Source of the DNA: Candidatus Omnitrophota bacterium
Lineage (GTDB): Bacteria > Omnitrophota > Gorgyraeia > Gygaellales > JAMWDD01
Length of the DNA stretch: 64,000 nt
Direction: 5' to 3'
Assembly: GCA_028717645.1 (NCBI GenBank)
Contig: JAQUNK010000003.1
Span: forward strand, 13,486-77,485
This document shows positions 2,821 to 38,904 of the stretch, in pieces (positions within the stretch are counted from its first letter, which is position 1; every line of letters begins with the position of its first letter). The translations under genes and the position numbers were made by a program. The notes below the pieces were generated by a model. It was not told the DNA's origin. It saw nothing but the letters and a program-made list of their open reading frames with translations, and searched no databases.

Positions 2821-4245
2821 TTATTTGTTTTCGATAAAGGTGCGTTTGAGGGAATCCTTGAGCCTGCCTCTTTTTTGTTCCTTGATCAGGACGCGCGCGA
2901 CGAGGCGGGGGGAGGTGAAGATGAGCGCTACCGCTTCTTTAAAGGTAAAGAATTTTACGACAAAAATGTTTTTCCAGAAGATCTTCAGGTACCGGGACGG
3001 GGTGTAAAAAGAGAACTTTATGCGTTTACCGATTTTTTTAAGCGCTGCGTGGCTGAATGTATCGGAGTAAAGTTCTCCGCGCTCGGTGATATGGTAACCC
3101 GGGGTCTTTTCAGCCAGTTCTCTTAAAGGCGAGAATTTTTCTATCCTCAGTTTATTGCAGCTGATCGAATCGACGCCGATCTCTTTGGCGAACTGCCCTA
3201 TATAAAGCATTTCTTTTTCCGTCTCGCCGATATTTCCGTAAATAAAATATCCATTATAGAAAATAGGGTATTTCCTTAAGACCGCGAATGCTTCCCGGAT
3301 CGTTTTTTGGTCAAAACCCTTATTCAATTGCTTGAGTATCCAGTCGTGCGGGGATTCTATCCCGAGTAAAAGCGCTTTGAATCCTGCCTTGACCATTTTT
3401 TCCAGTAATTGAGGGTATTTGGCGATGTCGATCCTGGCCTGCGCGATAAAGCGTTTTTTAATTTTACGCGCAATGATCAGGTCGCAGATCTTTTCCGCCC
3501 GCTTAGGCTCGGTAAAGAGATTGTCGTCGCTGAACATAATTACGCCTGCCTCAAGGCCCTGGATCTCATTGACCACGGATTCGACGTTACGTGCGGCATA
3601 ATCTCTTTTTTGGCCGAGGGGATTAAGGCTGAAGGTGCAGAATTTACAGTTAAAAGGGCAGCCGCGTGCGCTTAATACGGCGTCAAAAGTTATATTCGCC
3701 ATTTGTATGCCGTTTACCGAAAGGGCGTATTTATTGCGCCTGAGCGAGCGGTCAGGCGGGTTTAAAGTGTCTACATTGGGGAATGGCCGGTTCGGATTAT
3801 GGATGATCCGGCCATTTTCCTGATAAGAAATGCCTAAAATGTTCTTAAGGGGGCTACCCTGGAGTATTTCCCTGATCGTTTCTTCGCCTTCGCCTCTTAC
3901 GATAATACTTACGTTGGGGCAGGCCTGGAAAAATTCGTTTACCTTTTCCGTGGCGGTATATCCGCCGAGTATCTGGGGGATATGTGCCGGCATACGGTTG
4001 AGCAGTTGGCAGATCTCTTCGAATTGCCTGTCCCAGCCTATACCTACGCAGACGACATCGACCTCTTTCCTGATAAAATCCAGGAGGTCCTCGATATCAG
4101 CCAGTTCCTTTTCATAGCGTAAGTCAAGCAGGGTGATCTTATCCACCAGGCCTTTGGCGCTTGTGGCCACATATTCCAGGCCGATCGGCGGGAAAAGCAT
4201 CATGGTGTTAGTGGAAGTCTTTTCGATGTAGGGGTTAAGGAACAA
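2821..4245 (-). CDS. B12-binding-domain radical SAM protein (class B)
   Basis: CPFNCKFC matches the CxxxCxxC radical SAM cluster motif. The N-terminal region resembles a cobalamin-binding Rossmann-like domain. The annotated start is TTG at 4245; an alternative ATG lies at 4203. Confidence 0.75.
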   Translation of the reverse strand: MFLNPYIEKTSTNTMMLFPPIGLEYVATSAKGLVDKITLLDLRYEKELADIEDLLDFIRKEVDVVCVGIGWDRQFEEICQLLNRMPAHIPQILGGYTATEKVNEFFQACPNVSIIVRGEGEETIREILQGSPLKNILGISYQENGRIIHNPNRPFPNVDTLNPPDRSLRRNKYALSVNGIQMANITFDAVLSARGCPFNCKFCTFSLNPLGQKRDYAARNVESVVNEIQGLEAGVIMFSDDNLFTEPKRAEKICDLIIARKIKKRFIAQARIDIAKYPQLLEKMVKAGFKALLLGIESPHDWILKQLNKGFDQKTIREAFAVLRKYPIFYNGYFIYGNIGETEKEMLYIGQFAKEIGVDSISCNKLRIEKFSPLRELAEKTPGYHITERGELYSDTFSHAALKKIGKRIKFSFYTPSRYLKIFWKNIFVVKFFTFKEAVALIFTSPRLVARVLIKEQKRGRLKDSLKRTFIENK

Positions 4246-16178: not shown

Positions 16179-17112
16179 AAAATTTAGCGCAAACCTAAAA
16201 GAGAGTATCCGTAAGTGCCGGGAACTGGATCCTTCTGGCCCTGATTATGAAATACTGGTTTTTCCGGACGAGGGTTTTGATATTGAAGGGCCGAAGACAA
16301 GGGTTATCCCGACTGGCAGCGTCCTGCCGGCAGAAAAACGGGACCTGGCTCTAAAAGAAGCAAAGGGTGAGATACTGGCATTTTTAGACGATGACGCCTA
16401 TCCGGCTAAAGACTGGCTGGTCAATGCCACGAGGCATTTTAAGAATGAAGATATTGCCGCGGTCTGCGGCCCGGCGGTTACCCCTGAGAGCGACGGCGTA
16501 ATGGAGCGGGCCAGTGGCTTAGTATACGCATCGCTGTTGGTGAGCGCAAGATATGCCAGTCGCTACAGGCAAGGTAAGGCGGTATTTTTTGTGGATGACT
16601 ATCCTTCCTGTAATTTTTTAGTACGCAGGGATGTCTTCGAAAAAGTAGGAGGTTTTAATACGGCTTTTTGGCCGGGTGAAGATACCATACTTTGCCTGAA
16701 GATCACCAAAGAGATACATAAGAAAATTTTATATGATCCCGGGGTTTTGGTTTATCATCATCGTAGGGAGCTTTTTAGGCCACATTTGAAACAGGTCGCT
16801 AGTTATGCTTTACACCGGGGTTATTTTGCCAAGCGCTTTCCGTGGAATTCTTTAAAGTTCACTTATTTTGTACCCAGCATCTTTGTCTTAGCGCTGGCGT
16901 TTGGCGTTGTGCTTAGTTTGATCCTGCCGGGATTAAAAAGCCTTTATTCCATTGCCTTGGCAGCATATCTGGTCTGCGTATTTATAGCCAGTTTAAATAA
17001 GGATATCAGGTTAATACCTTTAGTTTTTATAGGCATAATCTTAACGCATATTGCTTACGGGATAAATTTTTTAAAAGGCCTGCTGGCTGATAAACTGAAA
17101 GAAGAAGTATGA
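16150..17112 (+). CDS. GT2 glycosyltransferase with C-terminal TM segments
   Basis: N-terminal GT-A fold signatures (IIITCK, FLDDDAYP). Two to four hydrophobic helices at the C-terminus. Confidence 0.6.
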   Translation: MTVSIIITCKKFSANLKESIRKCRELDPSGPDYEILVFPDEGFDIEGPKTRVIPTGSVLPAEKRDLALKEAKGEILAFLDDDAYPAKDWLVNATRHFKNEDIAAVCGPAVTPESDGVMERASGLVYASLLVSARYASRYRQGKAVFFVDDYPSCNFLVRRDVFEKVGGFNTAFWPGEDTILCLKITKEIHKKILYDPGVLVYHHRRELFRPHLKQVASYALHRGYFAKRFPWNSLKFTYFVPSIFVLALAFGVVLSLILPGLKSLYSIALAAYLVCVFIASLNKDIRLIPLVFIGIILTHIAYGINFLKGLLADKLKEEV

Positions 17113-18563
17113 AAATTATAATTGGTTACCCACCATTGGCAAGCGATAATAAAGGGACACCGCTTTTATCCCAGAACCGGCAGTTCCAGTATTTCAAGGC
17201 CCCGACGTATATTTATCCGGTTGTCCCGGCAACTGCCGCGACATTATTAAAAAAAGCAGGCCATGAGGTTATCTGGAAAGACGCCATTGCCGAAGGCCTT
17301 ACTTATCAGCAATTCCTGGATTTTATCAAGAAAGAAAGGCCGGAGCTGATCGCTTTTGAAACTAAGACCCCGGTAGTACAGCAGCACTGGAAAATAATCA
17401 ATGATCTAAGATCCTTAGTAACTGGTTACCGGCCATTGACCGTATTATTCGGCGACCACGTTACCGCCCTCCCTGAAGAGTCTTTCCAAAATAGCCAGGT
17501 TGATTTTGTGCTTACCGGAGGAGACTACGATTTCCTGCTCTCAAATCTGGTCAGTGCCTTAAGCAATAAAACGGCTTTAGAAAAAGGCATTTATTATCGC
17601 GAGAATGGGCAACTCAAAAATACAGGCAGGTTCCATCTGCAGCATGATCTGAATTCTTTGCCTTTCATTGACCGTGAACTTACCCGCTGGGACCTTTACG
17701 CTTATAAGAACGGTAATTATAAAACTACGCCCGGCGCCTATATTATGAGCGGAAGGGACTGCTGGTATCATGAATGTACTTTTTGCTCTTGGCCTACGCT
17801 TTATCCGGAATTCAGGGTAAGAAAGGTGGATAATGTCCTGGAAGAAATAGGGATTTTGATCGATAAATATGGCGTCAAGGAGATCATGGACGATACCGGT
17901 ACTTTTCCTAAGGGCGATTGGTTGAAAAACTTTTGCCTGGGCATCATCGAGCGCGGTTGGAACAATAAAGTTTATCTGGACTGCAATATGCGTTTTGGGG
18001 TACTGAATGAGGATGAGTACAGGCTGATGAAAAAAGCGAATTTCAGGCTTATCCTTTTTGGCTTGGAGTCGGCAAACCAAAGGACCCTGGACAGGATCCA
18101 TAAAGGCCTTAAGGTCGAAGATATCGTTGAGTCCTGCAGATCTTGCAGAAAGGCAGGCCTTTTCCCGCATATTACCATTATGTTCGGCTATCCCTGGGAA
18201 ACTTATGAAGAGGCATTGAATACCTGGAAATTAGGGGAATGGCTGCTTAAAAAAGGATACGCTTATACTATGCAGGCGACCGTAGTTATCCCGTATCCGG
18301 GAAGCCCGCTTTTTGAAGAATGTAAAACCGCCGGGCTCTTAAAGACGCTGGATTGGCAGGATTACGATATGAAGCAGCTGGTCATGAAGACGGATGTAGC
18401 GGAAGAGAAGATCATGGATCTGGTACAAAGGATGTACCGGATCTCTTTTAATCCGGAGTTCGTCATGCGTAAATTGTTTTCCTTGCGCGATGCCGAAGAC
18501 CTGAAGTATTCTTTACGCGCAGCAAAAAAGGTCATGGGCCATATTTTTGATTTTAGCAAATGA
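17109..18563 (+). CDS. B12-binding-domain radical SAM protein (class B)
   Basis: N-terminal cobalamin-binding-like domain. A cysteine triad CWYHECTFC lies in the core. The enzyme is embedded in the glycan locus. Confidence 0.7.
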   Translation: MKIIIGYPPLASDNKGTPLLSQNRQFQYFKAPTYIYPVVPATAATLLKKAGHEVIWKDAIAEGLTYQQFLDFIKKERPELIAFETKTPVVQQHWKIINDLRSLVTGYRPLTVLFGDHVTALPEESFQNSQVDFVLTGGDYDFLLSNLVSALSNKTALEKGIYYRENGQLKNTGRFHLQHDLNSLPFIDRELTRWDLYAYKNGNYKTTPGAYIMSGRDCWYHECTFCSWPTLYPEFRVRKVDNVLEEIGILIDKYGVKEIMDDTGTFPKGDWLKNFCLGIIERGWNNKVYLDCNMRFGVLNEDEYRLMKKANFRLILFGLESANQRTLDRIHKGLKVEDIVESCRSCRKAGLFPHITIMFGYPWETYEEALNTWKLGEWLLKKGYAYTMQATVVIPYPGSPLFEECKTAGLLKTLDWQDYDMKQLVMKTDVAEEKIMDLVQRMYRISFNPEFVMRKLFSLRDAEDLKYSLRAAKKVMGHIFDFSK

Positions 18564-27265: not shown

Positions 27266-27826
27266 ATGGTTGACCAATTGATAAAGTTTTGTTTATTTTT
27301 ACTTTCTTTGCCTTTTCGTTTTAGGTGTAAGCATGTGGCTCGTTCGGCAATGATCGGGCCGGGGTATTCCTTTTTCGGCTGCAATCTGGAGAATGTCACG
27401 ATCTTAGATAACGTAAAGATCGGTTCGGGTGCCTGGATCCAGACGGTAGTTAGGGAAAAATCACCGAAACCTGCGGTAATCATAGCCGAAAATACCAATA
27501 TCGGCAGGAATGTGGTTATTTCTGCGGCAAAGAATATCACTATCGGGAAAAATACCCTTTTTTCTTATGCAGTATCCCTGATCGACCACAATCATGCTTT
27601 TGAAGACACGAATATTTCTCCTTTATACCAGGGTATCGACGATCCTGAAGATATCGTTATCGGGGAAGATTGTTTCATCGGCGCCCATAGCTTTATCCTA
27701 AAAGGGGTGGTACTGGGAAAGCATTGCGTTGTCGGCGCGAATAGCGTGGTAGATACGTCTTTCCCCGCATATTCAGTGATCGCCGGTTCTCCGGCAAAAT
27801 TGATCCGCAGCCTTAAACATGGGTAA
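27266..27826 (+). CDS. hexapeptide-repeat (LbH) acetyltransferase, sugar N/O-acetyltransferase-like
   Basis: Imperfect hexapeptide repeats (IGxN.., IGKNTLFSYAVSL, IGAHSFILKGVVLG). Confidence 0.7.
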   Translation: MVDQLIKFCLFLLSLPFRFRCKHVARSAMIGPGYSFFGCNLENVTILDNVKIGSGAWIQTVVREKSPKPAVIIAENTNIGRNVVISAAKNITIGKNTLFSYAVSLIDHNHAFEDTNISPLYQGIDDPEDIVIGEDCFIGAHSFILKGVVLGKHCVVGANSVVDTSFPAYSVIAGSPAKLIRSLKHG

Positions 27827-28475
27827 AATGACGGCCAGAGAAAAATCAATTTACGATACTTTTAACCCTTATATTTTTGCGCATATTCCCAAAAGAACCA
27901 AAGTTTTGGATGTCGGCTGTGGTGTTGGCATCCTGGGAAAAATGCTGCGCAGAGATAAAGACCCCGTTTTTATTGCTGCTGTCGAAAAAGAAACGCAAGC
28001 AGGTGAATTCGCTAAGGATAGTTATGATAAAATCGCTATCTTAGACCTGGAAGAAGATAAGGTAAAGCTACCTTTTGAAGAGGCGTTTTTTGATGTAATA
28101 GTATGCGGAGATGTTTTAGAACACTTAAAGGATCCTCTGGTGGCATTAGTAAAACTTTCGCGCTATCTTTCGAAAGACGGTTTCTTTTTGATCTCTGTAC
28201 CTAATTTCGCTTTTTTATCGGTAAGGCTTGCTTTACTTTTCGGAAATTTAAATTATGCAGAAGCAGGTATACTCGATAGGAACCATTTACATTTTTTTAC
28301 CAAAAAAAGCATTATCGGGCTCTTAAGGGAAGCTAAACTTGAACCGTACTGGGTACGCGGATACAATTTGGTTAAACCCAGGTTTTATTTTCTGAAGGCG
28401 TTGGGATTCTTATCCCCTGGCCTTTTTTCGATCCAGTTTTTAATAAAAGCGAGAAAAGAAAACAACGATGGATAA
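27819..28475 (+). CDS. class I SAM-dependent methyltransferase
   Basis: VLDVGCGVGILG motif I. Length 218 aa. Confidence 0.65.
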   Translation: MGKMTAREKSIYDTFNPYIFAHIPKRTKVLDVGCGVGILGKMLRRDKDPVFIAAVEKETQAGEFAKDSYDKIAILDLEEDKVKLPFEEAFFDVIVCGDVLEHLKDPLVALVKLSRYLSKDGFFLISVPNFAFLSVRLALLFGNLNYAEAGILDRNHLHFFTKKSIIGLLREAKLEPYWVRGYNLVKPRFYFLKALGFLSPGLFSIQFLIKARKENNDG

Positions 28476-29558: not shown

Positions 29559-31355
29559 ATGGCTAAATCAAATTTCTTTATAATCATCATATTTGTGCTT
29601 ATCCTCATCGTATTCACTTTCCCGCTGTTTCTTCATTTAACCTGTTATATCCCGGGTTTTTCTTCTACTGATGAGCCGTTGGCCACGCTCTGGAATAGCT
29701 GGCTGGCCAAGTATTCTTTTACGCACCACCTGCCTACGACGTTTACTTTTCTCTTCGCTTATCCTTTCGGAATAGCCTCGGACACTTCTGGATTCGTTTC
29801 CTACCTGTGGAAGGCGGTAAATTATTTCCTAAGCATAACGACAAGCCCGGTATTGAATTATAATATCCAGGTGTTGTTTAATTCTCTTTTATCAGCCGTA
29901 TGCGTATATTTCCTGGTGCTTTATTTGGCCAAAAGCAGGCTAGGTGCGGTATTTAGCGCTATTGCCTTTACGTTCTGCCCTTATCAGTTCGCCAGGGCCT
30001 GGCAGCATCTGGGCCTTACCTATAATCAATGGATACCGCTTATTTTGTTCTCTGCGATCTTGCTTAAAGATGACCTTTCGCGCAAAAGATCATTTTTCTT
30101 CTTATTAAGCCTTTTATTGGTCTTTTCATTCGATTTTTCCATTATGTATCTGGCAGCTATTTCCCTGGCGGCATTTTTTATCTATGTTTTATTGCATAAC
30201 TGGAGAATAAAGATAAGAGAGCGGGGCATAGGGAAATCAGAGATAAGATTTTTTAAGAATGCATTCTTAATCGGAATATTTGCTTTCATTGTTCTATTGC
30301 CGCAATTTGCGCCTATTATAACGAACAGGTTAAAATTATCTTCAACCACCGCGGCATCGGTTTTTAATCCTTACCATCGGCCGTTCGAAGACCTGTTCGA
30401 GCAATCGGCAAGGCCGTTAAGCTATTTATTACCGGCGACCACGCACCCTGTTTTCGGGAAATTTACCGAGCAGTTTATCGGCTCAAAGCTTTACGGTACG
30501 AGCCTTACTGAGCACACACTTTATCTGGGCTGGATCCCGCTGATCCTGGCATTTATTGCATTTCTACGTTGGAAAAAAGACCGCAAGAAACCGAGGGCCG
30601 GAGAAGACCATTACTTTGGTTTCTTTTTATTTTTGGCGCTTTTTGCCTGGTTATTTTCCCAGCCGCCCTGGTGGAAGATCGGGCCGTTAAAGATCTGGAT
30701 GCCGTCGTTTCTTATGTATAAGATACTTCCGATGTACCGGGCTTATTGCAGGTTCGGCATCGTGTTGATGTTAGCAGTGGCAGTAACAGCAGGTTTTGGG
30801 CTTAAGTTTATTTTAGAAAGATTTAAGACCAAGAAGGCCAGGCTGGCCGTATCTATGCTATTTTGCGGTTTGCTTTTATTTGAATTCTGGAATTACCCGC
30901 CTTTTAAGGTAATCGATGTTTCCCGCGCCCCGCAGGCTTACTCCTGGCTTAAGGCTCAAGCGCAGGACTTTGCTATTGCCGAATATCCCCTGGATTGCCA
31001 GGGTGCGAACGTAATGTATATGTTTTATCAGACCAAGCATGAGAAAAAAATGATCAATGGCACGATCCCCGGGACAAAAGCCAATGATCTGGCCAGGACT
31101 ATTACCAGGTTATCCAGCCCTGAAACTGCCAGGATGTTGGCATGGATGGGGGTAAAATACGTCCTGGTGCATTATGATGGGTATCTTCAGACCGAATTGA
31201 TCAAGGACAAAGATGAATTAGAAACGATCCCCAAAAATAAAGGCCTTAAGCTTGTGAGGAGTTTTCCGGAACAGGAATGCCTGGAAGAAAATATTTTTTG
31301 TACCAAAAAAACAGGTAAAATAGATGTTTATGAAGTGGTTGCGCGGATAAAATAA
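29559..31355 (+). CDS. polytopic integral membrane protein, possible GT-C-type glycosyltransferase or YfhO-like
   Basis: 598 aa with more than 10 predicted TM helices and a large C-terminal soluble domain. No diagnostic motif was recognised. Confidence 0.35.
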   Translation: MAKSNFFIIIIFVLILIVFTFPLFLHLTCYIPGFSSTDEPLATLWNSWLAKYSFTHHLPTTFTFLFAYPFGIASDTSGFVSYLWKAVNYFLSITTSPVLNYNIQVLFNSLLSAVCVYFLVLYLAKSRLGAVFSAIAFTFCPYQFARAWQHLGLTYNQWIPLILFSAILLKDDLSRKRSFFFLLSLLLVFSFDFSIMYLAAISLAAFFIYVLLHNWRIKIRERGIGKSEIRFFKNAFLIGIFAFIVLLPQFAPIITNRLKLSSTTAASVFNPYHRPFEDLFEQSARPLSYLLPATTHPVFGKFTEQFIGSKLYGTSLTEHTLYLGWIPLILAFIAFLRWKKDRKKPRAGEDHYFGFFLFLALFAWLFSQPPWWKIGPLKIWMPSFLMYKILPMYRAYCRFGIVLMLAVAVTAGFGLKFILERFKTKKARLAVSMLFCGLLLFEFWNYPPFKVIDVSRAPQAYSWLKAQAQDFAIAEYPLDCQGANVMYMFYQTKHEKKMINGTIPGTKANDLARTITRLSSPETARMLAWMGVKYVLVHYDGYLQTELIKDKDELETIPKNKGLKLVRSFPEQECLEENIFCTKKTGKIDVYEVVARIK

Positions 31356-31370: not shown

Positions 31371-32132
31371 GTGATCAAAATGAAGAGCGATATCCCGGTG
31401 GTAATTCTGTGCGGCGGAAAAGGTACACGCATGGGTAATGATGAATTGCCCAAACCGATGTTCCGTATCGGCGATAAACCCATGCTCTCACACATTATGA
31501 GCATTTATTCGCATTACGGCTTCAATAATTTTATCCTGGCCCTGGGCTACAAGAAGGAAAAGTTCAGGGAATATTTTAAAGGAATGCATAAATGGAAGAT
31601 CAAGTTCGTAGATACGGGCCTGGAAACTAATACTGGAGGAAGGATAAAAAAGCTGGAAAGCCTGATCAAAAGTGAAATATTCCTGGCGACCTATGGAGAC
31701 GGGCTTTCGGACGTGGATATAAATAAAGTTTTGGATTACCATCTTTGCCGCGGTAAAATTGCCACACTTGTTTCCGTGCGGCCGCATTCGCCGTTCGGTA
31801 TCATCGGTATCGATACGCATACCGACCGCGTGACGCATTTTGAAGAAAAGCCGATGCTCGACCACTGGATAAACGGCGGATTCTTCGTTTTTAACCGCAG
31901 CGTCTTTAAATATATGGGAAAAAATGATATCCTGGAAAGAGATGTCTTGCCGAGCCTAGCCAAAGATAAGAATTTATTGGCCTACAAGCACGACGGGTTC
32001 TGGAAATGCATGGATACTTATAAAGATAACCTTAATTTGAATGAGTTGTGGAAAAAGGGGAATGCACCCTGGGCCGCTTGGTTGTGCAACGCAGGCATTA
32101 AGAAGGAGTGCTGTGGAAGAACTAAAGAATAA
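31371..32132 (+). CDS. rfbF: glucose-1-phosphate cytidylyltransferase
   Basis: VVILCGGKGTRMG...PKPMFRIGDKPMLSHIMSIYSHYGFNNFILALGYK closely parallels RfbF (VILAGGLGTRL...KPKPMVEIGGKPILWHIM). Confidence 0.85.
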   Translation: MIKMKSDIPVVILCGGKGTRMGNDELPKPMFRIGDKPMLSHIMSIYSHYGFNNFILALGYKKEKFREYFKGMHKWKIKFVDTGLETNTGGRIKKLESLIKSEIFLATYGDGLSDVDINKVLDYHLCRGKIATLVSVRPHSPFGIIGIDTHTDRVTHFEEKPMLDHWINGGFFVFNRSVFKYMGKNDILERDVLPSLAKDKNLLAYKHDGFWKCMDTYKDNLNLNELWKKGNAPWAAWLCNAGIKKECCGRTKE

Positions 32133-33231
32133 AGTTTTTATTTTAGGGTTGGATGGAGGGACCTGGAAAATATTAGATCCCTTATTGCAAAAAGGATTGA
32201 TGCCCAACCTTAAAAAAATGGTTGAAGAAGGGACGAAGGGGACATTGAGATCGACTGTGCCTCCGCTTACTCCTCCTGCGTGGACTTCATTTCAAACTGG
32301 AGTAAACCCGGGAAAGCATGGGATTTTTGATTTTTTGGGCTTCGACCCGACAAAGAAAAAGACATACGTGGTAAATTCCAACTCCATACCATTAAAAACA
32401 ATATGGGATATCGCTAGCAATAGTGGTAAGAAGGTTATAACTGTTAATGTTCCGCTTACATATCCGCCCAAAAGAGAACCTAACAGAATTACAATCGGAT
32501 GCATGCTGTCTCCGAAAGAAAATGTCGATATCGTTTGGCCTAAAGAAATATTTGAAAAGTATATAAAAAGATCGGGCTATAAAATTTTAGGGGCATACTC
32601 CACGGGGAGTCTTAAGGATTCAGCCATAGAAGCGATTATTAATGAAGCGACGGAAGTGGAAAGAGCAAGAATAGAAGTCAGTCGCCGTTTAATGGCTGAT
32701 TATCCATGGGACCTTTTTATGCTGCAAATACAGTCGACAGATCATGTGCAGCACTTTTTTTCCCATTACCTTGACCCGGATTCCCCAGACTTTGGATCCC
32801 ATAAATACGCTTTAGTATCCAAATTTTATCAAGAACTTGATGAGGAAGTAGGCAAACTTGTTCAATCTTTGGATGAAAATGTAACTGTAATTATTGCCTC
32901 AGATCACGGATTCCATTACTTTAAGAAGTATGTTAATATAAATCCATTATTAAGGACGCAAGGATTCTTGGAAGAATCAGAATCCTTAGAGGTTAATGTC
33001 ATCGAGAAGTGTATAAAATTCTTAAGAAGAAATAAAATATTAATGTGGTCGGCAAAGATATTTTTAAGTACTAGCATTCAGTTAAAAATTCTGGCTGCAG
33101 TAAATAATGTGAATGCTAAAGACTGGTTCCGCGCAAAAGTATTTATGCCCCGGGGAGGTATATTTGCCTCAATCTTCATTAATGATAAGGTATGTTTACA
33201 GTCAATTCAAAAAAAATTATTGAATTATTAA
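32113..33231 (+). CDS. alkaline-phosphatase-superfamily protein (type I phosphodiesterase/NPP-like), N-terminal segment, frame-disrupted
   Basis: GLDGGTW...MPNLKK...TVPPLTPPAWTSFQTGVNPGKHGIFDF (metal-site/nucleophile region) and ASDHGF. GTG start at 32113 with AAGGAG at 32103-32108. The frame ends after the A8 run and the protein continues in 33192..33713. Confidence 0.6.
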   Translation: MEELKNKVFILGLDGGTWKILDPLLQKGLMPNLKKMVEEGTKGTLRSTVPPLTPPAWTSFQTGVNPGKHGIFDFLGFDPTKKKTYVVNSNSIPLKTIWDIASNSGKKVITVNVPLTYPPKREPNRITIGCMLSPKENVDIVWPKEIFEKYIKRSGYKILGAYSTGSLKDSAIEAIINEATEVERARIEVSRRLMADYPWDLFMLQIQSTDHVQHFFSHYLDPDSPDFGSHKYALVSKFYQELDEEVGKLVQSLDENVTVIIASDHGFHYFKKYVNINPLLRTQGFLEESESLEVNVIEKCIKFLRRNKILMWSAKIFLSTSIQLKILAAVNNVNAKDWFRAKVFMPRGGIFASIFINDKVCLQSIQKKLLNY

Positions 33232-33713
33232 GGGAATTTAAAGACCCTGAATCAGGAGAAAAGATAGTAAAACAAATTTATTTGAAAGAAAAAGTTTTCT
33301 TTGGCCCTTACTTAGATCGCTTACCGGATCTAATGATTGAATTCAAAGATAAATATACCGCAAGACTCTCGCTTTCTACAGACAAAGAAATATTTAAAAA
33401 AGTAATTTATCCGCATGATTTGACTGGATCACATGATTTGAAGGGAATTGTTGTGTTTTATGGAAGGAATATAAAGTCAGGAATAAACTTCAATGCTGAT
33501 ATTATTGATATCGCTCCTACAATCTTGAGCGTTCTGGGGATAGAAATTCCCTCTTACATGGATGGGCGAGCAATACAAGAGGTATTTATTGAGAATTTGA
33601 ATATAAAAATTAAAGAAACAGAACAAAAAGAAATAAAAAACAGTGATAAAAACAGTACTTATAAGGACCAAAGAGAAGTAGAAAAAAGATTGAAAAATCT
33701 GGGGTATCTATAA
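33192..33713 (+). CDS. alkaline-phosphatase-superfamily protein, C-terminal segment continuing 32113..33231
   Basis: Aligns with the C-terminal region of the paralog at 34967..36238 (GPYLD/GPYLE, PDLMI/PDLIL, IAPTIL). It is separated from the upstream segment by a -1 frame change at the A8 run (33209-33216). Confidence 0.5.
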   Translation: MFTVNSKKIIELLREFKDPESGEKIVKQIYLKEKVFFGPYLDRLPDLMIEFKDKYTARLSLSTDKEIFKKVIYPHDLTGSHDLKGIVVFYGRNIKSGINFNADIIDIAPTILSVLGIEIPSYMDGRAIQEVFIENLNIKIKETEQKEIKNSDKNSTYKDQREVEKRLKNLGYL

Positions 33714-33728
33714 CTATTATAAGAAAAA

Positions 33729-34970
33729 ATGAATTCTCAACTTAAATTTATAATCGTCGGCAGCGTTGATCACGGGAAGTCTACTCTTATTGGACGCCTA
33801 CTTTTTGATACACATTCCATCTCTGCCGATAAGGTAGATGAGATGCTAAAGACTGCAAAGAAACTAGGCAGGTCTACAGCCTTCGCATACTTATTAGACC
33901 ATTTGGAAGAAGAGCGCCGGCAGGAAGTCACCATTGATACGACTCAAGTATTCTTCAAAACCGACAAGAGGGAATATATGATTATAGATGCCCCTGGCCA
34001 TGTTGAATTCGTAAAAAATATGGTTACCGGCGCGACCCAAGCGGAGGTAGCTATATTGATCATTGATGCCGAAGAAGGGATAAAAGAACAAACAAGGCGC
34101 CACGCATATTTATTATCTTTGCTGGGTTTTAACCAGATAATTGTAGTGATAAACAAGATGGATTTGGTCGGTTTTAAACAGGATAGGTTCTTAGAGGTTC
34201 AAAAAGAAGCCGACGCCTTCCTGGGGTTTTTAAACATAAAACCTCTTTTCTATATTCCGATTTCTGCGGCAGAAGGAGATAACGTCGTTGAGAAATCCAA
34301 GAAGATGAGCTGGTATAAAGGCAAAATTTTCTTAGAGAGTCTGGAAGTTTTAAAAGAAAGAAAATCCCTGGAGGATAAGCCATTGATTTTTCCCGTCCAG
34401 GATGTCTATAGAATTGACGATAAAAGGATTGTGGTGGGAAGGATTGCCGCTGGCAGTATAAATCGGGACGAAGAAATAAAAATATTGCCCAGTGGGCAGC
34501 TTACAAAATTAAAATCCATTGAGAAGTTCGGTCAGGATAACGTGAAAAGTTCTTCTGTCGGGGAAAGTGTCGGTATTACTACTTGTGACCCCGTATTCTT
34601 GGATCGAGGGGACGTAATTTCAAGCTCCAAATATCCACCGCATATCACCGATACTTTTACGGCGGATATTTTTTGGCTCGTCAAAGAGGACTTTAATAAG
34701 ACTGAGCGTTTGACTTTAAGATGCGCGACTCAGGAGATTGCCTGCGAGATACAAAGTATCAGGGAAAGAATAGATTCTTCCACTCTTAGGGTGATCGAAG
34801 AAAATGCCGATGTGCTTAAATACATAGAAGTCGGCAGAGTACAAATAAAAACTAAGAAGCCGATTATAGTAGAATGTTTTAATGATATCGAGGAATTGGG
34901 TAGGTTCGTTCTTGTGCGTAAAGAAAATACCTGCGCAGGCGGGATCATAAGCGGATTAGCCATATCATGA
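33729..34970 (+). CDS. cysN: sulfate adenylyltransferase subunit 1 (GTPase), no APS-kinase fusion
   Basis: GSVDHGKSTLIGRLL (G1), DAPGH (G3), NKMD (G4). Length 413 aa, close alignment to CysN/NodQ. The APS-kinase C-terminal domain is absent. Confidence 0.88.
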   Translation: MNSQLKFIIVGSVDHGKSTLIGRLLFDTHSISADKVDEMLKTAKKLGRSTAFAYLLDHLEEERRQEVTIDTTQVFFKTDKREYMIIDAPGHVEFVKNMVTGATQAEVAILIIDAEEGIKEQTRRHAYLLSLLGFNQIIVVINKMDLVGFKQDRFLEVQKEADAFLGFLNIKPLFYIPISAAEGDNVVEKSKKMSWYKGKIFLESLEVLKERKSLEDKPLIFPVQDVYRIDDKRIVVGRIAAGSINRDEEIKILPSGQLTKLKSIEKFGQDNVKSSSVGESVGITTCDPVFLDRGDVISSSKYPPHITDTFTADIFWLVKEDFNKTERLTLRCATQEIACEIQSIRERIDSSTLRVIEENADVLKYIEVGRVQIKTKKPIIVECFNDIEELGRFVLVRKENTCAGGIISGLAIS

Positions 34971-36238
34971 AAAAACGCGTTATAATTATCGGCTTAGACG
35001 GTGTTCCTTATGAATTGATTAGAGACCTATCAGAAAAAGGGATTATGCCTAATGTGACAAAATTGCTTAGCCGGAGCAGCTTCAGGAAAATGCGCTCTTC
35101 TATCCCGGAAGTTTCCTGCGTTGCCTGGTCGTCTATTATTACGGGAAAGAATCCTGCCGAACACGGAATTTTCGGTTTTACTGACTTATGCGCAAATTCT
35201 TACAAGTTAAGGTTTCCTGATTTTAATGACTTAAAATCGAGGCCTTTTTGGGAAAACTCGCTAGTCAAATCTGTAGTCATAAATGTTCCATCCACTTATC
35301 CTGCTAGACCAATGAATGGTATACATATTTCCGGGTTTGTTTCTATTGAAATAAAAAAAAGTGTTTATCCAAGTACGCTGGTTCCGGTCTTAGAGTCTAT
35401 CGATTATCGTCTGGATGTAGATTCAGACAAGGCGCACAAGTCCATGGATTTATTCTTGGAGGACCTGGAAAAAGCCCTTGGAGCAAGGATTAAGACTTAC
35501 GAATATCTCTGGGATAAAATTGACTGGGAAATATTTATGTTAGTTTTTACCGAAACTGACCGGTTGATGCATTTTCTTTGGAATGCCTATCTCGATACGG
35601 AGCATAAATACCACCAAGATTTTTTAAAATGTTTTAAAAAGATAGATAACGTAATCGGAGATATCTTAAGTAAAATAAAGGAAAGCGATTCTTTGATTAT
35701 GCTTTCTGACCATGGCTTTGAAAAACTTGAATGCGACGTTTATATAAATTGGCTTTTGAAAGAAAATACTTTTCTGGATTGGACGGTTGGTGAAGAAGCG
35801 GGATTAGAAAATATTAATTCGTCTACGAAAGCATTTGCTTTAGACCCCGCAAGGATTTATGTAAACACAAACGTAAGATTTCCCCGTGGTTCCATAAAAG
35901 ATTGGGATAAAGATAAGGTATTAAGAGACTTAGAGTCTTTATTTACTGGTCTTACAATAAATGGTAGAAAAGTAATAAAGAGTATTTGCAGGAAAGAGCA
36001 GATTTATTCAGGGCCATATTTGGAGGTTGGGCCAGATTTGATTTTACTGGGGAATACAGGGTTTAATCTTAGGGCAAGCTTGCAGTCTCAGGGCATTACT
36101 GGCAAAGGGATCTTCACAGGAAAGCATACCCAGGATAATGGTTTTTTAATTCTTGCTGATGCTGGAGGCGAAATTAATATACCCGAATATCCCTCGGTAT
36201 GCGATTTTACAAGTATAATCAACGGATTAAACAACTAA
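34967..36238 (+). CDS. alkaline-phosphatase-superfamily protein (type I phosphodiesterase/NPP-like), soluble paralog
   Basis: IIIGLDGVPYELI...MPNVTKL...PEVSCVAWSSIITGKNPAEHGIFGF and MLSDHGFE. It is paralogous to 32113..33713 but has Ser-Cys where the paralog has Thr-Pro at the putative nucleophile position. Confidence 0.7.
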   Translation: MKKRVIIIGLDGVPYELIRDLSEKGIMPNVTKLLSRSSFRKMRSSIPEVSCVAWSSIITGKNPAEHGIFGFTDLCANSYKLRFPDFNDLKSRPFWENSLVKSVVINVPSTYPARPMNGIHISGFVSIEIKKSVYPSTLVPVLESIDYRLDVDSDKAHKSMDLFLEDLEKALGARIKTYEYLWDKIDWEIFMLVFTETDRLMHFLWNAYLDTEHKYHQDFLKCFKKIDNVIGDILSKIKESDSLIMLSDHGFEKLECDVYINWLLKENTFLDWTVGEEAGLENINSSTKAFALDPARIYVNTNVRFPRGSIKDWDKDKVLRDLESLFTGLTINGRKVIKSICRKEQIYSGPYLEVGPDLILLGNTGFNLRASLQSQGITGKGIFTGKHTQDNGFLILADAGGEINIPEYPSVCDFTSIINGLNN

Positions 36239-36296
36239 TATTTTTTAAGAGCCTATTAAAATTTAGTAGGCTATATTAGTAATTATGAGGCTATAA

Positions 36297-37097
36297 ATGG
36301 AACAACTTGAGAAACTGGAAAATCAAAGTATATTTATAATCAGAGAGGCCTATAGGCAATTTCGGTCCGTAGCAATGCTTTGGTCGATAGGCAAGGATTC
36401 CACCGCGCTTCTCTGGCTCATCAGAAAGGCCTTCTACGGTAGGATCCCTTTTCCGATTATGCATCTAGATACCACCTATAAGTTTAAAGAGATTTACGAG
36501 TTCAGGGATAAGTACGCAAAGGAATGGGGGCTTGACCTGCTAGTATATAAGAATGAAAAGGCGATAGAAGATGAGGTCGGGCCTTCCAAGAGAAAATTTG
36601 AATGCTGCACAGAATTAAAAACCAACGCTTTAAAAGAAGCCATTCTAAAGAATAAATTCAAGGCAATATACTTAGGGATAAGAAGAGATGAACATGGTAT
36701 TCGTGCAAAGGAGCGTTTTTTTTCACCCAGGGATGAAGATTTTGAGTGGAATTATAAAGAACAGCCGCCGGAACTATGGGATCAGTTCAAATCAAAGGCA
36801 AAAAACGAAGAGCACATCCGCGTGCATCCTCTCTTAGGGTGGCGGGAACTGGATATCTGGGAATACATAAAAAAAGAAAATATCCCTATTGCGGGGCTTT
36901 ATTTCGCCAAGGATGGCAAACGCTATAGAAGCATCGGCTGCCAGACTTGCTGCGAGCCAGTAGATTCAAGCGCGGACACGATAGACAAGATAATAGAAGA
37001 GCTGAAAACCACGACCGTTTCCGAAAGAAGCGGCAGGGCGCAGGATAAGGAATCTGCTTATACCATGCAGAAGCTTAGGTCTTTGGGTTATATGTAG
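36297..37097 (+). CDS. cysD: sulfate adenylyltransferase subunit 2
   Basis: SIGKDS PP-loop, FYG.IPFP..H.DT.YKF.E.YEFRD, GIRRDEHGIRAKER and HPLLGWRELDIWEYI all align with E. coli CysD. Confidence 0.88.
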   Translation: MEQLEKLENQSIFIIREAYRQFRSVAMLWSIGKDSTALLWLIRKAFYGRIPFPIMHLDTTYKFKEIYEFRDKYAKEWGLDLLVYKNEKAIEDEVGPSKRKFECCTELKTNALKEAILKNKFKAIYLGIRRDEHGIRAKERFFSPRDEDFEWNYKEQPPELWDQFKSKAKNEEHIRVHPLLGWRELDIWEYIKKENIPIAGLYFAKDGKRYRSIGCQTCCEPVDSSADTIDKIIEELKTTTVSERSGRAQDKESAYTMQKLRSLGYM

Positions 37098-37109: not shown

Positions 37110-38129
37110 ATGAAAATAGTGGAGAAATTCTGGAAAGGCAAGAAAGTCCTGGTTACCGGAGCGAACGGCTTTTTGGCTTCGCATATCAGCGTAAAATTAC
37201 TGAAGAGCGGAGCCAGCGTAATAGGGATCATTAAGGAAAATATCCCGGCTTCTTTTTTGGACCTTGAGCGGAAAAAGAACCAATTCAAAAAGCTTAAAAT
37301 ACTCAAAGGCGATATTGCCGATTATGCCTTCATCAAGAGGTTGTTCAAGAATTATAAGCCGGACATCTGTTTTCATGTGGCAGCGCAGGCTATTGTGGGA
37401 AAGGCGAACAAATCGCCCATACCCACTCTAAAGACCAATATCGAAGGGACATGGAACATTTTAGACGTGGCCAGGGAATTTTCACCCCAGACAAAGATCG
37501 TGGTTGCTTCCAGCGACAAAGCTTACGGCGAACACAAGAAGCTGCCTTATACAGAAAGTGCGGCTTTGCAGGCGCTGCATCCTTATGATGCTTCTAAGGC
37601 ATGCACGGATATCCTGAGCCGCACTTATGCGCATACCTATGGTTTAGGCGTTGCCGTGACCCGCTGCGCGAATATTTACGGGCCAGGAGACCTGAATTTC
37701 TCCAGGATCGTTCCGGACACCCTTAGGTCGGCGATCTCAGGCAAAGACCCGGTGATCCGTAGCGACGGGACACCCTTAAGGGACTATGTATTCGTTTGCG
37801 ACATAGTGAATGCCTACTTGTTATTGGCAAAAGCGCTTTTCCAGGGAAAGCCCGGAGTGCGCGGCGAAGCGTTCAATTTCGGAAGCGGTAAGCCGATAAG
37901 TGTTTTAAAATTGGTAAATGTGATCATCAATGCCTCCGGAAAAAGGAATTTAAAACCGCAGATCTTAAGCCGGACAAAAATAAAAGGGGAGATAGGCAAA
38001 CAGTATCTTTCCAGCCGCAAGGCGGGGAATATCTTGCACTGGGCTCCGAAATACAAACTGAATGAGGGGATAAAAATTACCCTGGGTTGGTATAAGGAAT
38101 TCTTAAAGAAAGGAAAAAAAGATGATTAA
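37110..38129 (+). CDS. rfbG: CDP-glucose 4,6-dehydratase
   Basis: FWKGKKVLVTGANGF matches the RfbG FWQGKRVFVTGHTGF. YDASKA is the catalytic YxxxK. AGGAGG lies 8 nt upstream of the ATG at 37110. Confidence 0.8.
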   Translation: MKIVEKFWKGKKVLVTGANGFLASHISVKLLKSGASVIGIIKENIPASFLDLERKKNQFKKLKILKGDIADYAFIKRLFKNYKPDICFHVAAQAIVGKANKSPIPTLKTNIEGTWNILDVAREFSPQTKIVVASSDKAYGEHKKLPYTESAALQALHPYDASKACTDILSRTYAHTYGLGVAVTRCANIYGPGDLNFSRIVPDTLRSAISGKDPVIRSDGTPLRDYVFVCDIVNAYLLLAKALFQGKPGVRGEAFNFGSGKPISVLKLVNVIINASGKRNLKPQILSRTKIKGEIGKQYLSSRKAGNILHWAPKYKLNEGIKITLGWYKEFLKKGKKDD

Positions 38130-38904
38130 AAAAGTAGCCAAGGCCATACTTTTATTAGTCATTGTTTCGATGATCGGACTAGTTGTTTTTCAGGTTCCCC
38201 GTAATGGCCCGAAAGCGATAATCAGTTCTTTGTACAAAGCGGGGTTTTCCGGAGAAAATAAAAAATTCGTTTTTCAGGTCAAGCTCTTCGGGTTGATCCC
38301 GGCCGGAGAAGCTGTTTTAAGCGAAGCCTCGGATAAAAACCTGAACGGCAGGGATGTCCTCTGCATAACTGCCCAGGCTTATCCTTCGGCCTTTATCTCT
38401 AGAATATATAAGGTAAGAGTCCAGGTGAAGAGCCTTATCGACAAACAAAACCAGTTACCGGTCTTATTTACCCAGCAATTGGAAATGCAAAACAAACCCA
38501 GCGATAACAAAGAAGTATATTACGACCAGAAAAAAAATATTATGACACTGCGGGGGGAAGAAAGGGCGATATTGGCCGATACTTATGACCCGCTTTCCGC
38601 AGTGCGTTTTTTAAGGAACCAGGACTTCAATAAATTCAAAGAGTTCGATATAAATATAAACACTAACCAGAAGAATTACGGCATGAAGGGAAAAGTGCTG
38701 CGCAGGGAAAAGATTGTCGTTGGTGGCAAGGAATACTTTGTTTGGGTGCTCCAGGCAAAAATCGCCAGGCGAGACAAAAATAATCCTTATCACCGCTCGC
38801 AGGTGACGCTTTATTTACTGGATAATGCCGAGAAGACGCCGCTAATGATCAAGGTTTTTGCCAGCGGCGGCCTGATCGTGGCAGTTCTTGAAAAGGCGGA
38901 ATAA
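38122..38904 (+). CDS. hypothetical exported/membrane-anchored protein (possibly DUF3108-like)
   Basis: N-terminal signal-anchor helix (ILLLVIVSMIGLVVF) and a soluble beta-rich body. No catalytic motif was recognised. Confidence 0.35.
   Translation: MIKKVAKAILLLVIVSMIGLVVFQVPRNGPKAIISSLYKAGFSGENKKFVFQVKLFGLIPAGEAVLSEASDKNLNGRDVLCITAQAYPSAFISRIYKVRVQVKSLIDKQNQLPVLFTQQLEMQNKPSDNKEVYYDQKKNIMTLRGEERAILADTYDPLSAVRFLRNQDFNKFKEFDININTNQKNYGMKGKVLRREKIVVGGKEYFVWVLQAKIARRDKNNPYHRSQVTLYLLDNAEKTPLMIKVFASGGLIVAVLEKAE

Follow-up and report, generated by a model that had tools for sequence, protein, structure and literature searches.

The question raised by the 64-kb window analysed here (64,000 nt of contig JAQUNK010000003.1 from the Omnitrophota assembly GCA_028717645.1) is why an O-antigen-like glycan locus contains the two genes of an ATP sulfurylase, cysN and cysD, together with two genes of the alkaline phosphatase (AP) superfamily, named here AP1 and AP2, and what the latter may do there. 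The four genes form a cassette (32113-37097, in the order AP1, cysN, AP2, cysD, all on the + strand), which is placed between an rfbF-like and an rfbG-like gene, just where a previous sequence-only reading of the window had located it. As argued below, the lateral acquisition of this cassette and its role as a dedicated sulfate-activation module for glycan modification are both well supported. The gene order also gives good support to AP2 as the putative functional partner of ATP sulfurylase in place of adenosine 5'-phosphosulfate (APS) kinase.

The gene cysN (33729-34970, + strand) encodes a 413-aa protein which exceeds the cutoff of TIGR02034 (358.6 vs 336.1), gives 268 bits with 1ZUN_B, and carries the GTPase motifs G1 (GSVDHGKST), G3 (DAPGH) and G4 (NKMD). 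It matches only positions 23-431 of the 632-position bifunctional CysNC model NF004035, i.e., it lacks the APS-kinase domain, and neither a kinase P-loop nor an LDGD motif was detected in the window, in agreement with the sequence-only reading. The gene cysD (36297-37097, + strand) encodes a short form (266 aa) of the catalytic, ATP pyrophosphatase-type subunit, in which about 31 residues (233-263) are missing. Its product contains the SIGKDST motif, ends with ...LRSLGYM, and scores 147 bits with PF01507, 350 with NF003587 (cutoff 195) and 216 bits with 1ZUN_A; the stricter cutoff of TIGR02039 was missed (267 vs 396.6). Considering this strong family membership, CysD and CysN together would produce APS from sulfate, ATP and GTP.

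The third gene, AP2 (34967-36238, + strand), encodes a 423-aa, predicted cytoplasmic protein and is translationally coupled to cysN by an ATGA overlap. For comparative analysis, 80 metagenome loci were fetched by means of an AP2 alignment, together with three others, and neighbouring genes were counted over 78 loci. It was revealed that in 43 of the 52 loci with enough upstream sequence cysN immediately precedes AP2 in the same orientation, and that cysD lies at most 3.5 kb upstream of AP2 in 32 of 36. The usual order is cysD-(DUF2061/TauE)-cysN-AP2, where the space between cysD and cysN often holds the gene of a DUF2061 membrane protein, of a TauE-family permease, or of both; a gene for a TauE permease or a CysA-type sulfate ATP-binding cassette (ABC) ATPase is found in or beside the module. 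The window deviates from this order solely by the position of cysD, which is found 3' of AP2 rather than 5' of cysN. That cysN precedes cysD, a point stressed in the sequence-only reading, is true of the window, but the pairing of cysN with AP2 is conserved and widespread, and not a peculiarity of this locus. Identity to the window proteins amounts to 73-79% for most CysD orthologs, 52-63% for most CysN orthologs and 53-62% for AP2, the relatives of which are named from Omnitrophica, Planctomycetota, Phycisphaerae, Sumerlaeota, Aureabacteria, and Bathyarchaeota. An AP2 profile search against 1.84 billion cluster representatives gave 3538 matches at E ≤ 1e-30, a number that includes paralogous AP1-like clades; a scan of genome contigs with a single AP2 sequence gave one distant match among the matches listed.

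The module resembles the cysDNC operon of Escherichia coli and the rhizobial NodPQ system, as in all of them a heterodimeric CysD/CysN ATP sulfurylase is followed by a third gene placed directly after cysN. Moreover, it would be, like nodP/nodQ of Nod-factor sulfation, an accessory copy serving a glycoconjugate and not cysteine synthesis. Unlike these systems, it has no APS kinase, its third gene belongs to the AP superfamily, no NodH-type sulfotransferase accompanies it, and its CysD is shorter by ~31 residues.

The association of AP2 with ATP sulfurylase takes other forms as well. In P0313 (707 aa), AP2 is fused at its C-terminus to a CysD-like domain. In L076 and L077 (8659-9465), a divergent CysD-like protein, 33% identical to CysD of the window, is encoded directly before AP2 with no CysN; it keeps a ...LRALGYM tail, and the P0313 fusion carries the same type of protein. 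These cases suggest a CysN-independent version of the module. Two other Omnitrophota-type loci of the rfbF-rfbG-DUF3108 kind hold different sulfur-related inserts. L094 combines a gene of PF01663 with one for a sulfatase-family protein of 723 aa; L095 (484-4220; Omnitrophota GCA_043823435.1) contains a gene for a cytoplasmic sulfatase-family protein beside that of a Sat-type ATP sulfurylase, an enzyme sharing no homology with CysDN. This last pair implies that the pairing of an ATP sulfurylase with an AP-superfamily protein, without APS kinase, arose at least twice in this locus type. The same region of L095 also encodes a 486-aa fusion of a pyruvate-kinase-like barrel and an NTP_transf_3 domain. 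It is also worth mentioning that L063 (987-7227), L066 (8755-11788), and L079 (3324-7578) carry two or three tandem genes of 680-730-aa AP-superfamily paralogs, located immediately 5' of cysD in the opposite orientation, the products of which lack the LGY tail described further on.

The genes surrounding the module (Wzz, bacterial tyrosine kinase (BY-kinase), flippases, short-chain dehydrogenases/reductases (SDRs) and aminotransferases) are polysaccharide genes, not cysteine genes. Because the relatives are located in polysaccharide loci, and because a six-frame motif scan found no APS-kinase or CysH motif in 84 loci, the view that the cassette probably serves glycan biosynthesis, and not cysteine assimilation, is supported. 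An ordinary cysteine operon as the setting of cysDN in relatives, allowed for in the sequence-only reading, was not seen. One could still assume that no sulfate reaches the glycan, i.e., that CysDN works for cysteine next to unrelated phosphatases, or that AP1 and AP2 transfer phospho-substituents such as phosphoglycerol, phosphoethanolamine or a nucleotide-linked group. Enzymes such as EptA, LtaS, and the glycosylphosphatidylinositol ethanolamine phosphate (GPI-EtNP) transferases (PF01663) do put phospho-groups on glycans, and relatives of AP1 occur in Wzx/Wzy loci with no nearby cysDN. We consider this quite improbable, given the extreme conservation of the cysN-AP2 adjacency, the CysD fusion, the sulfate transporters encoded inside the module, the lack of cysH, cysI, cysJ, and cysK in all loci with polysaccharide genes all around the module, and the Sat-type sulfurylase accompanied by a sulfatase-like gene in the syntenic L095.

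The next question is what kind of enzyme AP2 may be. The Pfam and active-site check proposed in the sequence-only reading assigned both AP1 (149 bits) and AP2 (113 bits) to PF01663 (cutoff 23), with the metal ligands and a Thr or Ser nucleophile present. Among 26 AP2 sequences, D11, S50, D198, H202, D248, H249, and H387 are invariant, and the bimetal site is thus complete, while no Cys is invariant. The difference at the nucleophile pointed out earlier for the two paralogs stands as Thr (AP1) versus Ser50 (AP2), but the Cys of the AP2 motif SCVAW, which follows Ser50, is not conserved and is usually Ser in relatives. A formylglycine or Cys nucleophile in AP2 was ruled out on this ground. The formylglycine motif C/S-x-P-x-R is absent from both proteins (LTPPAWTS in AP1, VSCVAWSS in AP2), and their PF00884 matches are only marginal.

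The AlphaFold (AF2) model of AP2 (predicted local distance difference test, pLDDT, 85.5) has PhnA and the nucleotide pyrophosphatase/phosphodiesterase (NPP) as its nearest structures, and PDB sequence and fold searches gave only these remote matches. AP2 shares with Xac NPP (2GSN) and PhnA (1EI6/3SZY) the fold, the six metal ligands and the position of the nucleophile: Ser50 aligns with the catalytic Thr of Sinorhizobium meliloti PhnA, i.e., the residue differing between 3SZY and 3T02. It differs from them in its low identity (12-16%, with a template modelling (TM) score of about 0.55-0.63), cytoplasmic location, Ser in place of Thr, Phe71 aligned with Asn of the PhnA/NPP HGIxGN motif, and genomic coupling to ATP sulfurylase. 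In contrast to secreted NPPs, no signal peptide was found, and there is no room for one, because the catalytic Asp11 lies in the first strand.

None of the enzymes usually expected to use APS accompanies the cassette. In the window, the motif scan was again negative for APS kinase and CysH, and Pfam scans of about 50 window proteins gave no match to APS kinase, CysH or a sulfotransferase (PF00685/PF13469); a 5'-phosphosulfate-binding (5'-PSB) motif was likewise not found in the six-frame scan. The absence of cysC, cysH, and a sulfotransferase from the window, reported in the sequence-only reading, was thereby borne out. The CysH motif EC[GT][LIVM]H is absent from the window and the 84 loci, in which proteins with a PAPS_reduct domain end in a CysD-type tail. 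Only one of the 78 loci (L061) has a canonical sulfotransferase beside AP2. No description of the module, nor of an APS-dependent or AP-superfamily sulfotransferase, was found in the literature searched (COG3379 and DUF2061 included). Agl7 of Haloferax (HVO_2046) is required for sulfation of dolichol phosphate (DolP)-hexose (PMC3892788), and the family to which Agl7 belongs was not found in the literature searched.

The place of AP2 could mean that it is a non-orthologous APS kinase, in which phospho-Ser50, charged by pyrophosphate (the by-product of CysD) or a nucleotide, would transfer its phosphate to the 3'-OH of APS and so yield 3'-phosphoadenosine 5'-phosphosulfate (PAPS). Such an enzyme would pull the unfavourable sulfurylase reaction from both ends, and canonical PAPS-using enzymes encoded elsewhere would perform the transfer. 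In E. coli cysDNC, as in nodPQ and cysNC fusions, cysC follows cysN; AP2 occupies exactly this position, its translation being coupled to that of cysN. APS kinase is found in none of the loci, the AP2-CysD fusion exists, and a Ser nucleophile is also that of the phosphomonoester-transferring AP and the phosphoglycerate mutase iPGM. In addition, the R-x7-S spacing of the L061 sulfotransferase, read as a 3'-phosphate-binding motif, points to the use of PAPS. Against it, that sulfotransferase is the only canonical one in 78 loci and PAPS reductase occurs in none, no phosphatase of 3'-phosphoadenosine 5'-phosphate (PAP) was seen, the fold of AP2 is nearest to the diester-type NPP and PhnA and not to monoesterases, and we know of no kinase-like enzyme in the AP superfamily. 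We hold this explanation to be improbable.

The reading preferred here is that the cassette is a laterally acquired, PAPS-independent sulfate-activation unit of a glycan operon, in which AP2 would consume APS and AP1 would be a glycan-specific, switchable partner. Taken as a whole, it comes close to an even chance without quite reaching it. Whereas APS synthesis follows from the families of CysD and CysN, we infer every chemical step beyond it. Standing where APS kinase stands in cysDNC-type operons, AP2 is proposed as the APS-consuming enzyme: Ser50 would attack the sulfur of APS, free AMP and form a sulfo-enzyme, as in sulfatases acting in reverse, and the sulfuryl group would then be handed to an acceptor with no need for PAPS. 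In the window, the outcome would most likely be an O-sulfate on the glycan repeat unit, with AP1 (Thr nucleophile) as the glycan-specific member, which a poly-A tract would switch by its length (A9 on, A8 off). The CysDN-AP2 core of related loci would instead feed a sulfoquinovose-synthase-like enzyme with a thioredoxin. This sulfo-transfer from APS is favoured because of the coupling of cysN to AP2, the AP2-CysD fusion and the independent pairing of Sat with a sulfatase-like protein. A covalent sulfo-enzyme working without PAPS is known from formylglycine sulfatases, which belong to the same superfamily, and from arylsulfate sulfotransferases, and the like is proposed for AP2; the nucleophile of AP1 and AP2 is Thr or Ser and not formylglycine, while arylsulfate sulfotransferase has another fold and another donor. 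To our knowledge, all well-characterised glycan sulfation uses PAPS and P-loop sulfotransferases, and the sulfite for sulfosugars comes from CysH-type reductases.

The AP2 loci without an upstream cysN are informative in this respect. They show the arrangement Wzz-AP2-X-thioredoxin, where X is a 509-aa protein similar to UDP-sulfoquinovose synthase (SQD1), and the SQD1-like gene is directly downstream of AP2 in every such locus having downstream sequence. This protein scores 418 bits with NF041015, below the equivalog cutoff of 575, and has a conserved, 80-aa Cys-rich N-terminal extension (TCWNCPA..FRACGQ..AEC..EC). The gene was found 3' of AP2 in L002, L005, L018, L035, L037, L050, L053, L058, L060, L061, L069, L076, and L083. 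It is usually followed by a thioredoxin gene, the product of which has WCPPC or a close dithiol variant in 11 of 14 cases and a monothiol WC[LI]PS in three; a monothiol thioredoxin acting as sulfite carrier was dropped as a general feature given the prevalence of dithiols. The full series cysD-cysN-AP2-SQD1-like-thioredoxin is present in L018, L035, L037, L053, and L083. The gene found between those of APS synthesis and that of the sulfite-using enzyme is thus consistently AP2.

These loci favour the main rival explanation, according to which AP2 generates sulfite: the sulfuryl group of APS would pass to a thiol, provided by thioredoxin or by the Cys-rich extension of the SQD1-like enzyme, and then be reduced, so that AP2 and thioredoxin would replace CysH and feed the synthesis of an NDP-sulfoquinovose-like sugar. 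In CysH-type reductases, the sulfuryl group of APS is transferred onto an enzyme nucleophile, and sulfite is then released by thioredoxin, the plant 'APS sulfotransferase' being in fact APS reductase (PMC1175818). The gap filled by that reaction stands open in the cysDN-AP2-SQD1-like-thioredoxin loci, and with no CysH motif found anywhere, AP2 is the only enzyme without an assigned role between APS and sulfite. The conserved Cys motif of the SQD1-like protein and the gene of TauE, a member of the sulfite exporter family, inside some modules fit as well. Yet AP2 has a fold unrelated to CysH, lacks the ECG[LI]H motif and has no conserved Cys, and no AP-superfamily enzyme is known to us as a reductase partner. 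The SQD1/SqdB/Agl3 pathway is matched by a full-length homolog next to AP2 in related loci, but this homolog has the 80-aa extension and a partner thioredoxin, and neither it nor a thioredoxin is encoded in the window. Any sulfite made there would need another user, either the 4,6-dehydratase-like SDR next to the cassette or some enzyme encoded at another site. The former is probably an ordinary dehydratase, as it is 76% identical to the SDR of a cassette-free relative, and an SQD1-like gene is within reach in only 16 of the 78 loci. Sulfite formation appears rather unlikely for AP2, while being a serious competitor of sulfation. APS-fed glycan sulfation, as suggested in the sequence-only reading, is still the best available reading, but the relatives point at least equally to a sulfite/sulfoquinovose-type chemistry with thioredoxin.

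The same loci bear on a simpler role of AP2, that of a helper hydrolase, i.e., a pyrophosphatase or nucleotide pyrophosphatase which pulls APS synthesis or clears AMP or PAP while other proteins perform the transfer. Fusions of ATP sulfurylase with pyrophosphatase occur in eukaryotes, the tight coupling to CysN and CysD is equally expected of a pulling enzyme, and PF01663 is named for pyrophosphatase/phosphodiesterase activity. Such a role leaves AP2 beside the SQD1-like and thioredoxin genes in loci lacking cysDN unexplained and the module without any APS-consuming enzyme, and an NPP cleaving ATP next to an ATP-dependent enzyme would presumably be wasteful. Both this helper function, to which we attach very little probability, and the APS 3'-phosphotransferase are less likely than the two sulfur-transferring schemes.

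The remaining cassette gene, AP1 (32113-33713, + strand), starts with GTG at 32113, just downstream of AAGGAG, and does not form an intact paralog of AP2 as had been assumed: it is split into open reading frames (ORFs) 32113-33231 and 33192-33713, which overlap at a run of eight adenines (A8; 33209-33216, + strand). One added A (A9) restores the frame and fuses both ORFs into a 533-aa protein, the N-terminal part of which matches PF01663, while the C-terminal part resembles AP-family C-termini and aligns with AP2 residues 332-387. Homologs that match this repaired protein over its full length measure 524-560 aa (30-50% identity). AP1 and AP2 share 28% identity, and AP1 shows the same ligand motifs with a Thr nucleophile (LTPPAW). 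Its catalytic Asp is at about residue 15 and it has no signal peptide, which indicates a cytoplasmic protein. The location of AP1 relatives between flippase and polymerase genes in Wzx/Wzy loci suggests that AP1 may be a repeat-unit-modifying enzyme.

An AP2 identical to that of the window was found in four other assemblies. In the AP1 tract, A8 is present in the window, in L089 (GCA_028710905.1) and in L091 (the Logan assembly of SRR22315509), and A9 with an intact AP1 in L090 (GCA_028713695.1), which is 99.8% identical (9 substitutions in 4.9 kb). An intragenic repeat that differs in length between near-identical genomes and toggles the frame suggests a natural homopolymer polymorphism in a presumed glycan gene, the signature of a contingency switch; alternatively, the difference may be an assembly error. 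As in the phase-variable glycan genes of Campylobacter, Haemophilus, and Neisseria, a one-base change of a homopolymer switches the frame, but the AP1 tract is short (A8/A9), known from a comparison of assemblies, and comes from an uncultivated Omnitrophica member. In the zero frame the run reads as the slippery heptamer A_AAA_AAA; with no stimulatory RNA structure 3' of it (z = 0.83), programmed frameshifting was left as a mere possibility. The window contains 10 homopolymer runs of at least 8 nt and none of at least 9 nt. Three of the 10 fall in the 5-kb cassette, the other two being A8 in AP2 (35353-35360) and T8 in cysD (36716-36723), for which no length variants were found in four related assemblies.

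Several points speak against the proposed transfer of sulfate from APS by AP2. NPP-type enzymes normally attack phosphorus, and an attack on the phosphorus of APS would be mere hydrolysis. AP2 is far more conserved than an enzyme of a variable glycan should be, which implies that it may make a common intermediate and leave the sulfation of the glycan to others. An SQD1-like gene near AP2 in 16 of 78 loci, and a thioredoxin gene in 12 of 78, fit sulfite better than O-sulfation. Furthermore, this genome carries AP1 in a frameshifted form, no cysDN lies within 10 kb of the AP1 relatives in L085-L087, and the search for cysC, cysH, and sulfotransferases covered the window and the fetched loci, not the rest of the genome.

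A feature shared by many proteins of these loci is a C-terminal tail composed of an acidic stretch and the motif [KR]L-x-x-LGY[ILMV], ending 0-4 residues from the terminus. It was found in 42 of 42 CysD and 22 of 23 DUF2061 proteins, in every AP1-like protein examined, in many sulfatase-family neighbours, in the CysA-type sulfate ABC ATPase (L046_2557_3681) and in the sole canonical sulfotransferase (PF00685; L061_638_1327). Within the window it is present only on AP1 (33672-33713, ...EKRLKNLGYL) and CysD (37053-37097, ...MQKLRSLGYM), while CysN and AP2 lack it. Canonical CysD ends with ...GYF, so the tail may dock on CysN; the CysD-like protein lacking a neighbouring CysN still has the tail, and some tail-bearing sulfatase-like proteins have twin-arginine translocation (Tat) or lipoprotein signals, both of which weigh against such docking. 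A wider scheme can be imagined, in which AP2 represents a new class of APS-dependent sulfuryl transferases built on the alkaline phosphatase/sulfatase scaffold and is the hub of PAPS-independent sulfation and sulfonation, with AP1 as a phase-variable output. CysD, the sulfate ABC ATPase, DUF2061, and the clients (AP1-like proteins, sulfatase-like proteins and one canonical sulfotransferase) would join the CysN/AP2 core by their tails, and this docking would channel sulfate from import to the final acceptor. This scheme is doubtful, albeit a real possibility.

How the cassette came to its place is indicated by the syntenic relative L093, in which the cassette is absent and rfbF and rfbG overlap, with nothing between them. 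The comparison of this junction in relatives, as well as the sliding-window analysis of GC content, had been proposed along with the sequence-only reading, and both upheld its idea of a horizontally acquired insertion. The collinear order in L093 is GT-C, rfbF, rfbG, DUF3108, a 695-aa protein, GT2, GT2, and Wzy_C; of these eight, all aligned with their window counterparts, seven show 58-76% identity and one GT2 only 36%. The homology ends at ~32081 and restarts at ~37128, which marks the bounds of the insert. The closest rfbF-like homologs (62-73% identical, mostly from Omnitrophota) have 233-245 aa and cover about 91-93% of the window protein, and the L093 homology stops at residue 237 of the latter. 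Its last 16 codons (32082-32132) encode a Cys-containing C-terminal extension, LCNAGIKKECCGRTKE, which overlaps the AP1 start and is missing from all close homologs; apparently, this putative extension was made by the left insertion junction. Only chance-level short repeats flank the cassette and no mobile-element genes were found there, so the insertion claim relies on synteny with L093 and not on flanking repeats. That the block is an insertion splitting an otherwise adjacent rfbF-rfbG pair is, on this comparison of sequences, a supported interpretation.

The base composition is also deviant. The GC content of the cassette is 38.5%, vs 44.6% for the whole window, and this is the lowest value reached by any 4985-nt sliding window; the dip is real, but smaller than a hand count in the sequence-only reading had indicated. 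GC at third codon positions (GC3) is 0.38 vs 0.51 (Mann-Whitney p about 1e-4), while cysD, unlike the rest of the cassette, has a composition near the background. The sole gene outside the cassette with a cassette-like composition is that of a methyltransferase (27819-28475; GC 38.2%, GC3 0.36), which may be another acquired gene. Throughout the block the intergenic gaps are at most 58 nt, or the genes overlap, and it was thus read as part of the glycan operon, with which we propose that the cassette may be co-transcribed.

The genes flanking the insert were annotated as follows. The left synteny anchor is a 598-aa, GT-C-like multi-pass membrane protein (29559-31355, + strand) with no Pfam match, the C-terminal 260 aa of which are 65% identical to a partial gene 5' of rfbF in L093. 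The rfbF-like sugar-1-phosphate nucleotidylyltransferase (31371-32132, + strand; PF00483, 78 bits) has the glucose-1-phosphate cytidylyltransferase model TIGR02623 as its best match, and the rfbG-like NDP-hexose 4,6-dehydratase, an SDR (37110-38129, + strand), the CDP-glucose 4,6-dehydratase model TIGR02622. The names rfbF and rfbG given previously are those of the best matches, but both scores are below the equivalog cutoffs (231 vs 300 and 210.6 vs 278.45 bits, respectively). Several 60-70% identical rfbF-like homologs carry the Joint Genome Institute (JGI) name glucose-1-phosphate cytidylyltransferase. The rfbG-like translation contains YDASK and SSDKAY, which we take to be the catalytic YxxxK and the Asp-Lys pair of the dehydratase family, and the ATG at 37110 is also where this gene was called to begin in L089. 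The right anchor is a DUF3108 protein (38122-38904, + strand; PF11306, 63 bits), 67% identical to its L093 ortholog and followed in the window by a gene of a 692-aa membrane protein; the DUF3108 gene is directly after rfbG in L093 and L094, and nearby in L095.

The whole glycan locus extends on the + strand from a Wzx-type flippase gene at 14.2 kb to about 50.9 kb and includes rmlA-like and gmd-like genes, many GT2/GT4/GT9 transferases, methyltransferases, Wzy_C, ManC, and DegT. It is flanked by housekeeping genes (0-14 kb and 51-64 kb), among them Obg, ProB/ProA, NadD, Rpe, PGM, S1, TyrRS, PriA, Fmt, and P-type ATPases. Two genes of B12-binding radical S-adenosylmethionine (SAM) proteins were noticed at 2821-4245 (- strand) and 17109-18563 (+ strand), the second being part of the glycan locus, with GT2 genes on one side and rmlA on the other. 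The region 58462-64000 matches L088 (GCA_028710905.1) at 99.98%, with one 1-nt gap over 5.5 kb, its counterpart in that assembly being divided among shorter contigs.

In summary, the cysDN-AP2 module is best understood as a probable system of sulfate activation serving the modification of glycoconjugates, in which the second enzyme is without precedent. It couples ATP sulfurylase to an uncharacterised AP-superfamily protein, lacks both APS kinase and CysH, and has thousands of relatives in Omnitrophota, Planctomycetota, Sumerlaeota, Bathyarchaeota, and other uncultivated lineages. If AP2 does use APS directly, sulfur groups would be transferred by a new route, which would explain sulfated or sulfonated envelopes and exopolymers of many anaerobes lacking the PAPS pathway (e.g., in sludge and sediment communities) and would make AP2 a PAPS-free biocatalyst for sulfation. 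The A8/A9 difference suggests, in addition, surface variation of the contingency type, of which we know no report from this candidate phylum. The recurrence of the same pairing in many uncultivated phyla points to an undescribed sulfur decoration of cell-surface sugars.

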